Positions 6,585-35,052 of a stretch of DNA of 64,000 nucleotides are shown one piece after another; within the stretch, counting starts at the first letter, position 1, and each line of letters opens with the position of its first letter. The notes under the pieces were generated by a model. It saw nothing but the letters and a program-made list of their open reading frames with translations, ran no database searches and was not told the origin of the DNA. A program made the position numbers and the translations under genes. Source of the DNA: Candidatus Thorarchaeota archaeon (GTDB taxonomy: Archaea > Asgardarchaeota > Thorarchaeia > Thorarchaeales > Thorarchaeaceae); NCBI GenBank assembly GCA_003345545.1, contig PRDH01000039.1:64001-128000 (forward strand), given 5' to 3'.

Positions 6585-6787
6585 GTCAGTCAAACCTTAT
6601 ATGCATCCGAAGCACAGCGAATGCGCGACCGATATCGGCGTCGCAAGACGTTTCCGAATAGTCTTGGTGTTTCACTTGCACATGCATCAAATGAATCTTC
6701 TATCTGCAAAGTGGTCCCGGTCGAGCGGCCTTGGGACCGCTGCCCTAAAATGGAGTGTTGACAGAGATGAAACTCACTGTTGCTGAC
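6585..6787 (+). ncRNA. Candidate structured ncRNA or leader RNA (copy A)
   Basis: Nested helices GTCAAAC/GTGTTGAC, ATGCAT/ATGCAT and GAAGCAC/GTGTTTC enclose two hairpins; also GTGGTCCC/GGGACCGC. G-U pairs favour the + strand. TTTATAA box at 6554. Confidence 0.45.
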
Positions 6788-32436: not shown

Positions 32437-33504
32437 CTAGAGTCTCTTCTTGCCCAAGAGGAATTCTTCAACCCAACGCTCTGCTCGATACATCGTTGTA
32501 GGCGTAGGCGGCATTTTGAAACCATATGCGGAGATGGACTCAAGTGAACCTCCTATACCTCTCTTCAAAGCCAGCTTTGTTCCCCTGATGGCATCCAGCA
32601 GGATAGGTCCAGCATTTGGCCCATCTGTCACTTCCATTCTGATATCTATCTTAATTGGAGCGCCACCGAATTGACGTCCGTTGATATAGAAGAATGAATC
32701 GCGGCTGTTATCCATGAAATCAACATAGTCTGATGACCCTGCAACGAGTGGAGCATCATAGGGCAAGTCTTGGCTTATTGCTGCGCTCTTGACGCCTCTC
32801 TTTCTCATTCTGCCTCTGTAGTGAGAGTCCAACGATTCCGCACCGCCACCAACATCAAGTTGATAGCTCTTGTCCACCTTCACACCTCTTGCAACCAGAA
32901 GCTGCAGAATACTGCGATGTAGGACTGTGGAGCCCAGTTGATCCTGAATATCGTCACCGATAAGCGGGAGTCCCTTCTTCTCGAACTTCTTATTCCACTC
33001 AAGATCTGAAGCTATTGATATTGGCGTCGCGTTGATGAAGGCGCACCCTGCGTCTAACGCTGCTTTTGCATAGTACTTTGTAGCATCTTCTGCTGAACCA
33101 GGCAAGAGATTGACAAGAATCTCTGCACCTGCGTCCTTGAGCACCTTGACAACATTCGCATCAGGTGCGTTGGAGAGACTCACAAGTGTCTGAAGCATTT
33201 CATCGACTCCATCCAATAATGGACCCTTGGCGACAATGACACCGGTCTTAGGAACTTTCGAAAAGCGCATCACATTGTTGGGTTTTGCAAAGATTGCCTC
33301 AGAGAGGTCAAAACCAATCTTTGTATCAGCAACGTCGAAAGCTGCGACAAACTCAATATCACTCACGTGGAATCCTGCGAAATCGGGATGAGCTAAACCA
33401 GGTACATCTCCCTCTGTCTTCACATTCTTGTAGTACTCTACTCCTTGGACTAGAGCACTTGCAACATTTCCAACTCCAACAATTGCTACTTTGATTCCAT
33501 CCAA
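32437..33504 (-). CDS. ino1: Myo-inositol-1-phosphate synthase
   Basis: IKVAIVGVGN.AS.LVQG..YY, FVAAFDV, GDDI..Q.G.T..HR, D.PN.G and SAY..K.PP motifs. TTG start after GAGGTGG. Confidence 0.92.
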   Translation of the reverse strand: MDGIKVAIVGVGNVASALVQGVEYYKNVKTEGDVPGLAHPDFAGFHVSDIEFVAAFDVADTKIGFDLSEAIFAKPNNVMRFSKVPKTGVIVAKGPLLDGVDEMLQTLVSLSNAPDANVVKVLKDAGAEILVNLLPGSAEDATKYYAKAALDAGCAFINATPISIASDLEWNKKFEKKGLPLIGDDIQDQLGSTVLHRSILQLLVARGVKVDKSYQLDVGGGAESLDSHYRGRMRKRGVKSAAISQDLPYDAPLVAGSSDYVDFMDNSRDSFFYINGRQFGGAPIKIDIRMEVTDGPNAGPILLDAIRGTKLALKRGIGGSLESISAYGFKMPPTPTTMYRAERWVEEFLLGKKRL

Positions 33505-33553
33505 TTGTTCCACCTCTGGTTCTTTTCGGACCTCTCTTGTCAATGTCTTATAT

Positions 33554-33577
33554 ACTATTCTATTGATATAGAATAGT
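33554..33577. promoter_or_regulatory. Palindromic operator-like site between the ino1 promoter and the candidate ncRNA promoter
   Basis: ACTATTCTAT-TGAT-ATAGAATAGT, perfect 10-bp arms. Confidence 0.55.
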
Positions 33578-33633
33578 TAGACAATCGTTGTTGGGGAGGA
33601 AGAGTTTATGTTGGTATCTTACGTATATTTCAC

Positions 33634-33869
33634 TGGACGATTGGCCGACACCATGTTGCTCCATGCGTCGTCGGTAGTCGTGGGAACGACGCAGATACAC
33701 TTAGTGGTCTATGCGAATGTCCCGTCGCGGGAGATTCGCCTCTCACCGAAAAGGTTCAGGGAGATACCCGAATAGTGTGTTCAGCGAGCACCACTCATGA
33801 TCAAAGAGAAAAGAGGGTGGACCTCGAGCCCCAAAAATGGGCACCAAAAAGGGCGTTGGCCTTCGTCCA
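33634..33869 (+). ncRNA. Candidate ~236-nt highly structured ncRNA (copy B)
   Basis: Closing helix TGGACGA/TCGTCCA plus GGCCGAC/GTTGGCC. Nested helices TGCTC/GAGCA, TGCGTCGT/ACGACGCA, ATACAC/GTGTGT, GCGAAT-TCCCG/CGGGA-ATTCGC, CCACTC/GGGTGG and GCCC/GGGC. TTTATG lies 29 nt upstream; no ORF of 60 aa or more. Confidence 0.6.
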
Positions 33870-33882
33870 CTCATTGTTCTGA

Positions 33883-35052
33883 CTAATTCTCCTCAAGTTG
33901 CTCTGACAGGAGCTCCATGATATCTAGGACTCTCACTCTACTGCTGATACTCTCTGCGCCTTCTTTCAGATTACGCACGCAGAATGGGCAAGCTGTTGCT
34001 AGAATATCCGCCCTGACCCCCTCTGCAGTCTTCACTCTGTCAGCAGCAATCCTTCTGGCAAGGGACACATCAAATGAACGCAGACCTCCTCCAGCCCCAC
34101 AGCACATTGCTGCTTCCCTATTGGGGGTCATCTCAACAAGCTCTACACTGGGGATTGCCTTTATGATTTCTCTGGGCTCTTCGTAGACTCCTAGCGCTCT
34201 CCCCAGATGGCAGGGGTCATGCCATGTGACTCTCCTTTGCCTGTCACCACCCCTCAGTATCAGTTTTCCACCTTTGATAGCAGACTCGAGGAATTCAACC
34301 ACGTGCACCACTTTCGGCATATCTAGACCAAAGTACTCTGAATAATCCTCGCGGAGTGTCTTTAGGCATCCCGCACATGCAACGATGACTGTTTTTGCAC
34401 CGGACTCTTTGATACTCTGCATCACTCTCTCCGCATTCTCTCTTGCACTGTCAATGCGTCCTGTCCTTATCATGACACTTCCGCAACATGGCTCATCTTC
34501 CAGAACTGCAAAATCGTACCCAGCAGCTCTCAAGACTCGGGCTGCCGATTTTGCTGTTTCAGTCAATTTGAGACCTGCTGTACAGCCTGCAAAATACAGT
34601 ACGTCACCTGTGCTCGGAATGTCAAATCCTATCTCAGCCACCCAATCTCTACGTGTCTTATTCGTCTCGGTGTACGGATTATTGTATCTCAGAATCTTAT
34701 CCGCTATCGCATCACGTGACTCGTTCGGTATCTCATTGAGCACATCCCGCACGCTTTCCAAACACTTCGCAGGATCGAACTCAGCGGCGCAAATGGCAGT
34801 GCAATTGCCACAGAGTGTACATGTGTAGAGCGCTTCTGCATTCTCCGCGGTCTTCATAAGTCTTCCTTCGAGCAGAGCAATGGCTACCTGAATTCTGCCC
34901 CGCATGAAGCTAGTTTCAAAACCAGAGGAGTTCTTCCAGACGGGACATACTCCATCAAAACCTCTGTCTTCATAGACTGCATTTCGACACATGCCGCATC
35001 TGCGACATTGTGCCAAGTTCTCCATCAATTCATCAATGCGAGCACCAGTCAT
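33883..35052 (-). CDS. Fe-S oxidoreductase with 4Fe-4S and CCG domains (GlcF/HdrD-like)
   Basis: CRRCGMC, CTLCGNC...C, EPCCGS, WHDPCHLGR, CCGAGG and TACPFC motifs. Confidence 0.9.
   Translation of the reverse strand: MTGARIDELMENLAQCRRCGMCRNAVYEDRGFDGVCPVWKNSSGFETSFMRGRIQVAIALLEGRLMKTAENAEALYTCTLCGNCTAICAAEFDPAKCLESVRDVLNEIPNESRDAIADKILRYNNPYTETNKTRRDWVAEIGFDIPSTGDVLYFAGCTAGLKLTETAKSAARVLRAAGYDFAVLEDEPCCGSVMIRTGRIDSARENAERVMQSIKESGAKTVIVACAGCLKTLREDYSEYFGLDMPKVVHVVEFLESAIKGGKLILRGGDRQRRVTWHDPCHLGRALGVYEEPREIIKAIPSVELVEMTPNREAAMCCGAGGGLRSFDVSLARRIAADRVKTAEGVRADILATACPFCVRNLKEGAESISSRVRVLDIMELLSEQLEEN

Follow-up and report, generated by a model that had tools for sequence, protein, structure and literature searches.

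The window analysed here, a stretch of 64,000 nucleotides from the genome of a Candidatus Thorarchaeota archaeon, contains a gap of 339 bp between two minus-strand genes, ino1 and a gene for a CCG/4Fe-4S oxidoreductase (below, the Fe-S gene). In this gap lies a plus-strand gene for a structured non-coding RNA of about 237 nt (33634-33870). The first-pass annotation of this DNA had proposed a multi-junction RNA of about 236 nt at this place, with both neighbouring genes on the minus strand, and its extent as well as the orientation of its neighbours are confirmed. That the segment is a genuine gene of a new family of structured non-coding RNA is close to certain. The features of the locus, in window coordinates, are as follows.

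32437-33543, minus strand: ino1 (myo-inositol-1-phosphate synthase), the divergent neighbour on the 5' side of the RNA gene
33547-54, read on the minus strand: TATA box of ino1 (CTTATATA on the plus strand), between the RNA and ino1
33593-33611, plus strand: promoter of the RNA gene, with a purine-rich BRE-like run (33593-33604) and a TATA-like TTTATGT (33605-33611)
33634-33870, plus strand: RNA gene, about 237 nt, 5' (U)GGACG ... CGUCCAC 3', 228 bits with the family model R1
33635-33652, plus strand: 5' strand of the terminal helix (5' strands of P1 and P1b)
33635-40/33863-68, plus strand: helix P1, with a change from A-U to G-C in one genus
33644-52/33852-60, plus strand: helix P1b, an extension of P1, with double changes in all 8 pairs
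33655-33662, plus strand: J1/2, conserved joining strand GUUGCUCC, which may pair with GAGCA 33786-90
33664-73/33681-93, plus strand: hairpin P2, of variable sequence, with 10 pairs, all showing double changes
33696-701/33774-79, plus strand: helix P3, which together with P4 encloses the P5-P6 three-way junction
33706-08/33766-68, plus strand: helix P4, 97.6% paired
33714-22/33730-38, plus strand: hairpin P5 (GAAUGUCC/GGAGAUUC), 99.1% paired and nearly invariant in sequence
33741-48/33752-62, plus strand: hairpin P6 (CUCUCACC...GGU[UCA]GGGAG), with an invariant 3-nt bulge UCA at 33756-58
33786-96/33815-25, plus strand: hairpin P7, with an A-rich loop
33829-31/33839-41, plus strand: hairpin P8 (33828-33842), three pairs with double changes
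33843-33851, plus strand: J8/1 joining strand, ACCAAAAAG in the window, ACCAAGUC in the family consensus
33852-33882, plus strand: 3' strand of P1b/P1, unpaired tail A-C(-C) and pyrimidine/T-rich stretch, ending 1 nt short of the convergent gene's stop codon (33883)
33883-35052, minus strand: CCG/4Fe-4S oxidoreductase (Fe-S gene), the convergent neighbour on the 3' side of the RNA gene

The segment 33634-33870 folds into one closed, branched structure. Its minimum free energy on the plus strand is -94.1 kcal/mol, compared with -73.3 ± 4.6 kcal/mol for dinucleotide shuffles, none of which equalled it in 200 (z -4.56); a comparison of this kind had been named as a check by the first-pass annotation, as had the search for compensatory changes described below, and both came out in favour of the structure. 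The minus strand likewise folds well (z -4.1), and folding energy alone therefore cannot fix the strand. From a MAFFT-only alignment of 19 homologues of the same genus (A1), RNAalifold derived a consensus with 62 pairs, of which 16 are compensatory within the genus. In the family-wide alignment of 41 sequences (A3), which was fitted to the model and hence favours it, 91.9% of cells are paired and 51 of the 62 pairs show double changes. The covariation score of A3 is 0.478 against 0.200 when shuffled, no shuffle among 500 reaching the observed value, and it drops to about 0.07 in a control in which the partners are slid by 1-3 columns. The MAFFT-only alignment had already given the same helices as A3, and in a scan of all column pairs, made independently of the model, the strongest covarying pairs almost all belong to it.

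Every helix listed in the nested fold that the first-pass annotation had drawn exists, and most are backed by covariation. All 10 pairs of P3/P4 are double-changed and these two helices are among the top covarying column pairs, while the outer stem of P6 is 100% paired with double changes present. P7 shows one-sided (wobble) changes only, because its 3' strand, GGGUGGACCUC (33815-25), is invariant; this strand is the most conserved element of the RNA. P8 is dispensable, being deleted in three species of the same genus. The pairing of TGCTC with GAGCA (33657-61/33786-90), also part of the earlier drawing, holds in part: it is compatible with 30-38 of the 41 sequences, but it overlaps and competes with the 3-bp base of P7, and neither of the two pairings shows a double change in the 41 sequences.

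Conservation of the RNA is two-tiered. P1b, P2, P3, P4 and P8 vary freely in sequence with their pairing kept. Near-invariant across genera are the ends of P1 (GGACG/CGUCC), P5, which has a conserved G-G mismatch (33719/33733) inside it, the core of P6 (CAC...GU-UCA-G with the 3-nt bulge, CAC and GUUCAG being invariant), the start of the P7 loop (ACGUUCA) and the 3' strand of P7. Two invariant words are each present twice, GGAC at the 5' end and in the 3' strand of P7, GUCC in P5 and at the 3' end; in the window they lie at 33635-38, 33719-22, 33819-22 and 33865-68. Alternative helices are therefore possible between the 5' end and P5 and between P7 and the 3' end, the latter of up to 7 bp (GGUGGAC/GUCCACC). 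Covariation of P1 in one genus fits P1 and breaks the alternative helix, and thus favours P1; a conformational switch between the helices is possible. The conserved segment is not a small protein gene, since codon periodicity is absent among the homologues, which show no coding potential, and since their lengths, from 215 to 250 nt, reflect indels of any size and without triplet steps.

Upstream of the RNA, the TTTATGT box starts 30 nt before the first G, and a YTTAW box lies at -29 to -31 from the first G of GGACG in 37 of the 41 homologous loci. This fixed spacing places the start of transcription at the first nucleotide of the terminal helix, and it substantiates the BRE-like run and TATA-like box that had been pointed out from the single sequence. 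The strand is given by the wobble pairs. Within the 62 pairs, the 41 sequences contain 281 G-U/U-G cells and 28 A-C/C-A cells, so that the structure must be read from the plus strand, the minus strand giving the reverse; the G-U pairs had been said to favour the plus strand, and across the family they do. Beyond the 3' strand of P1 the sequence continues with a single variable base, then C(C), then a pyrimidine/T-rich stretch. Over the 41 loci, the pyrimidine fraction of the first 12 nt of the 3' flank averages 0.77, a T run of at least 3 is present at 24 of these loci, and the stretch probably acts as a terminator. We infer that the transcript starts at the first G of GGACG and ends after CGUCCAC(C). 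A regulon sharing the promoter of the RNA was sought in the genome and nothing was found.

Contigs assembled from four metatranscriptome runs, belonging to four studies, cover 33646-33840, 33680-33853, 33657-33855 and 33674-33843. They stay within 33646-33855 and none enters the neighbouring genes. Run X8 alone also has a contig of ino1; there the RNA contig reaches a word depth of 327 and the adjacent ino1 contig one of 4.7. Parts of the window on either side of the RNA are uncovered in the metatranscriptome runs, which in assembled contigs is no proof of silence. Contigs of this kind show presence and footprint and carry neither strand nor exact ends; of the plus-strand coverage with discrete ends that had been named as a check, they thus provide a footprint confined to the RNA. 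Together with the promoter and the G-U bias, this footprint supports the earlier claim of an independently transcribed, structured RNA on the plus strand. The gene is independent of its neighbours, and its transcript is stable, abundant and highly structured.

When relatives were searched at the DNA level, most species of the genus proved to have full-length homologues, with identities of 70-96%. The covariance model built from A1 (R1) has exactly one match in the window, 33634-33870 at 228 bits. For the class, 87 genomes were sampled: that of the window itself, 85 that belong to one family, and a single representative of a second family. R1 matches once per genome in 68 of the 87, in 15 of the 17 genera of the class; one genome has two matches, the second being on a contig of 541 nt. 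By the same model the RNA is present in 15 of the 16 genera of its family and absent from the remaining genus (0/4 genomes) and from the second family. The genus that lacks the RNA has an intact syntenic site, at which the Fe-S gene ends 60-100 nt from the ino1 promoter and its palindrome. This gap is too short for the RNA, which is therefore truly absent there and not missed; as one genus lives without it, the RNA is not essential. Across the loci that carry it, ino1 is divergent upstream in 38 of 41 and the Fe-S gene convergent downstream in 36 of 41. The whole neighbourhood is conserved, and synteny therefore says little about function.

A core model spanning P3 to P7 (R2) was run on 151 Asgard genomes and found the RNA only in one Thorarchaeia family; a single match in another family, at E=0.055, was taken as chance. 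With a two-motif pattern, the matches outside the family among 400 genomes look random and are equalled by control counts. By R2 and this pattern, both of which very divergent relatives could escape, the RNA was not found in the 26 or more other Asgard families sampled. It represents a new family, present once per genome in almost all Thorarchaeia, and the proposal of an Asgard ncRNA class was right as to the lineage and too broad as to the range, which is confined to one Thorarchaeia family.

The first-pass annotation had also counted at least two diverged paralogues, on the strength of ordered motifs that it saw in common between the RNA and a second segment, copy A (6585-6787). Neither claim stands. 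R1 finds exactly one copy in the window and per genome, and with its filters off it gives copy A at most 6.1 bits, a trivial match. Copy A carries none of the six invariant family motifs (0/6), and its local alignment to the RNA has a z of 0.64 against shuffles. On its own account copy A folds only marginally better than shuffles (z -1.8) and would, if an RNA at all, be unrelated to the one described here. Searches of the 2.69-Mb genome for second copies with blastn and nhmmer matched only the locus itself, and seven pattern matches in IMG/VR viral contigs proved not to be real by R1 or R2. A MITE or other repeated mobile element, which many near-identical copies would have betrayed, is rejected in view of the single copy per genome, synteny at 38 of 41 loci and the lack of true viral copies.

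No Rfam 15 family matched in the RNA, either at the gathering score over the whole window or at E<=10 over the 651 nt around it (33400-34050). Among 16 divergent homologue loci no match recurs and none at E<=10 concerns the RNA, and the matches that were obtained are chance lncRNA/miRNA matches elsewhere than the RNA. The novelty that had been made to depend on Rfam is thus borne out, and so is the statement that the RNA is not RNase P RNA, SRP RNA, 5S rRNA or tRNA, for which ARAGORN and the separate loci of the known RNAs speak as well. The archaeal RNase P RNA (RF00373) is of a similar order of size, single-copy, multi-helical, paired at its ends and abundant, but its conserved regions are missing from the Thorarchaeia RNA, which its model does not match; the canonical copy of this genome lies at C12:49445-49784 (151.9 bits). 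The 5S rRNA model (RF00001) likewise gave no match, an expanded 5S rRNA was rejected too, and 5S is found at C68:12122-12240 here and at other loci in four relatives. ARAGORN reports no tRNA or tmRNA in 33000-34500, and the strand that leads into the 3' half of P1 extends the terminal helix and forms no T arm.

Archaeal SRP RNA (RF01857) was weighed separately, as a search for it in the window's genome (G000, 93% complete) returned nothing, which raised the question of an SRP RNA in disguise. Both RNAs have 5' and 3' ends that pair into a closing helix and both are single-copy and abundant, but the Thorarchaeia RNA is without the long helix 5 and the helix 8 motifs and is not matched by the SRP model. 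The congeners have both: a normal SRP RNA of about 310 nt is present in 26 of 27 at loci other than that of the RNA (in G001, SRP RNA at C3:175418 and the RNA homologue at C1:575878), and for this reason the missing SRP RNA of G000 is probably an assembly gap. The plus strand has no C box (RUGAUGA) and no D box (CUGA), as had been noted from the single sequence, and no Rfam snoRNA matched. The reverse complements of the conserved GUUCAUCA and GUUCAG read UGAUGAAC and CUGAAC, and a C/D reading of the minus strand is excluded by the 281 G-U against 28 A-C cells, the promoter and the T-rich end. Like Y RNAs, the Thorarchaeia RNA has a terminal stem that is closed and almost invariant in sequence, and it may serve as a protein scaffold, but it is much larger and more branched. 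The Ro60 domain (TROVE, PF05731) was found in none of five genomes, three with the RNA and two without, in a search in which control genomes gave matches, and no Y_RNA match was obtained either.

A closer likeness is to the large orphan structured RNAs of bacteria, such as the raiA motif, OLE, ROOL and GOLLD, which were found by comparative genomics. Like them, the Thorarchaeia RNA has a stand-alone gene, an abundant transcript of a few hundred nucleotides with covarying helices around a conserved core, a lineage-restricted distribution and a function that cannot be deduced from its neighbours. It differs from them in being archaeal and in matching nothing in Rfam 15, and from OLE in having no conserved adjacent partner gene. 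Bacterial RNAs of such properties have proved to be ribozymes, riboswitch-like sensors or cores of unexpected ribonucleoproteins. To our knowledge archaea have yielded very few complex structured RNAs apart from the universal ones, and in the literature on Asgard archaea, the closest prokaryotic relatives of eukaryotes, we found no description of this RNA or of other complex structured RNAs. Here an RNA of eight helices, with a core conserved almost to the nucleotide, is kept at one locus across a class of uncultured organisms; its distribution is narrow, and one genus does without it. With the alignment, the structure model, the boundaries and the promoter in hand, its function can be tested without culture.

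In the reading that we favour, the RNA works in trans and forms the core of a ribonucleoprotein. Blended into one figure, the gene, the new family and this mechanism are given a probability of roughly 0.55; the mechanism by itself, in which the invariant P5-P6-P7 region would underlie an RNP core or a scaffold that binds proteins, is tentative and falls somewhat short of even odds. The peripheral helices P1b, P2, P3, P4 and P8, being free in sequence with their pairing kept, would serve as scaffold. The invariant elements, namely GAAUGUCC/GGAGAUUC with its G-G mismatch, the CAC...GU-UCA-G bulge, ACGUUCA and GGGUGGACCUC, would present a fixed surface recognised by one or more proteins, which the RNA may assemble, sequester or modulate. 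Its paired, closed ends would shield it from exonucleases, and this could account for its abundance. In favour of such a core, the invariant nucleotides lie inside the helices and bulges of P5-P7 with covarying helices on their flanks, and nearly full-length RNA is recovered in the transcriptome contigs. Invariance inside helices and bulges points to partner recognition or to a tertiary or active-site core, and not to simple antisense. The complements of the conserved stretches show no clear enrichment in the genome, in a rough count, which was also counted in favour of the RNP.

A search of the neighbourhood for a partner protein identified none. The sole recurrent neighbour on the same strand is an SSB-like OB-fold gene (PF21473), at 16 of the 41 loci and in six genera. 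This family has 1-13 matches per Thorarchaeia genome, several in most, and occurs in the genus without the RNA as well; being multi-copy and in all genomes, it gives no phyletic signal for a partnership. The gene, which has its own TATA box, was rejected as a partner. One paralogue lies downstream of the RNA gene at L009:1956-2429 (plus strand) and 15 other loci, and carries a TTTATAGG box of its own. It has been lost from the RNA site in the window's subclade, and other copies of the family are found in G000 (e.g. C76:86993-87451 and C27:8222-8692).

Invariant nucleotides in paired regions fit the active site of a ribozyme or a ligand pocket equally well. It is unlikely, though worth keeping in view, that the RNA is a functional machine and not a passive scaffold, either as a new class of ribozyme or as a homo-oligomer joined through its P5 loops; if so, no large orphan RNA of this kind would have been described from Asgard archaea before it. 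The ribozyme reading, in which the invariant P5-P6-P7 core would form an active site, self-cleaving or directed at another RNA, and the variable helices a scaffold, we consider quite unlikely. The multi-junction fold, the placement of invariant nucleotides in bulges, mismatches and one strand of a helix, and the failure of any known family to match are all in keeping with it. On the other hand, no known ribozyme model matched at E<=10, no substrate is known, and the contigs span 33646-33855 without break or joint, which argues against efficient self-cleavage in that range.

We likewise give little credence to a trans-acting, base-pairing sRNA, which would reach mRNAs or stable RNAs through the single-stranded GUUGCUCC, the ACGUUCAUC loop and ACCAAGUC. 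Such a role would suit the conserved unpaired stretches, the A-rich loops, the abundance and the promoter of its own. Against it, the size of the RNA, its eight helices and its invariant paired core go far beyond what seed pairing needs, and the rough count of complements mentioned above shows no clear enrichment of targets.

An assembly made of RNA alone, with kissing dimers formed through an often palindromic P5 loop and leading to homo-oligomers, is improbable. Homo-oligomers have been reported for some large bacterial orphan RNAs, and in many genera the P5 loop contains CUGCAG, GACGUC, AAAUUU, GAUC, UAUA or CGCG. A 6-nt palindrome is found in 7 of 29 distinct P5 loops, compared with 2.2 in shuffles (P 0.003), but four of the seven share CUGCAG, which leaves only about three independent cases. 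At least 12 of the 41 sequences, close relatives included, have no palindrome of 4 nt or more; the window's clade is mostly without one, and the P5 loop of the window itself has only CGCG.

To read the RNA as a known housekeeping RNA that has diverged very far (RNase P, SRP, 5S, Y RNA or snRNA/snoRNA-like) or as a MITE is scarcely tenable, for although the RNA is single-copy, abundant, conserved and closed at its ends, RNase P RNA and 5S lie elsewhere in the genome and SRP RNA elsewhere in 26 of 27 congeners, Rfam (E<=10), the tRNA/tmRNA search and the TROVE/Ro60 search gave nothing, the distribution is restricted to one family of one class, and the single copy speaks against a MITE.

A cis-regulatory leader or riboswitch, belonging to the downstream SSB-like gene or to ino1 on the minus strand, is very improbable too. 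It draws on the recurrence of the neighbours, with ino1 divergent at 38 of the 41 loci and the OB gene on the same strand at 16. The structure, however, is on the plus strand, and ino1 is separated from the RNA by its own TATA box and palindromic operator, which places the RNA outside the ino1 transcript. At 25 of the 41 loci, the window included, no gene follows the RNA on its strand. The OB gene, at the loci that carry it, is served by a separate TATA box, about 40 nt past the T-rich end of the RNA. The RNA contigs stop inside the RNA, which has a T-rich end of its own. The first-pass annotation had held that the RNA cannot be a UTR of its neighbours, and strand and ino1 promoter position largely refute the leader in agreement with it.

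Immediately next to the ino1 TATA box lies a perfect palindrome, CTATTCTAT-N4-ATAGAATAG (33555-76), which may be the operator of a regulator that controls inositol-phosphate synthesis. Across most of the family's genera its core, ATTCTAT-N4-ATAGAAT, or a close variant of it is found in the same position next to that box. An operator shared with the RNA was considered and rejected: the palindrome travels with the ino1 TATA box, its distance to the promoter of the RNA is variable, and it persists in the genus where the RNA is absent, and for these reasons it belongs to ino1. Besides its syntenic ino1, the same genus has a distant second ino1 paralogue, at 42-43% identity (L108 and L109; G074:C11 and G036:C77).
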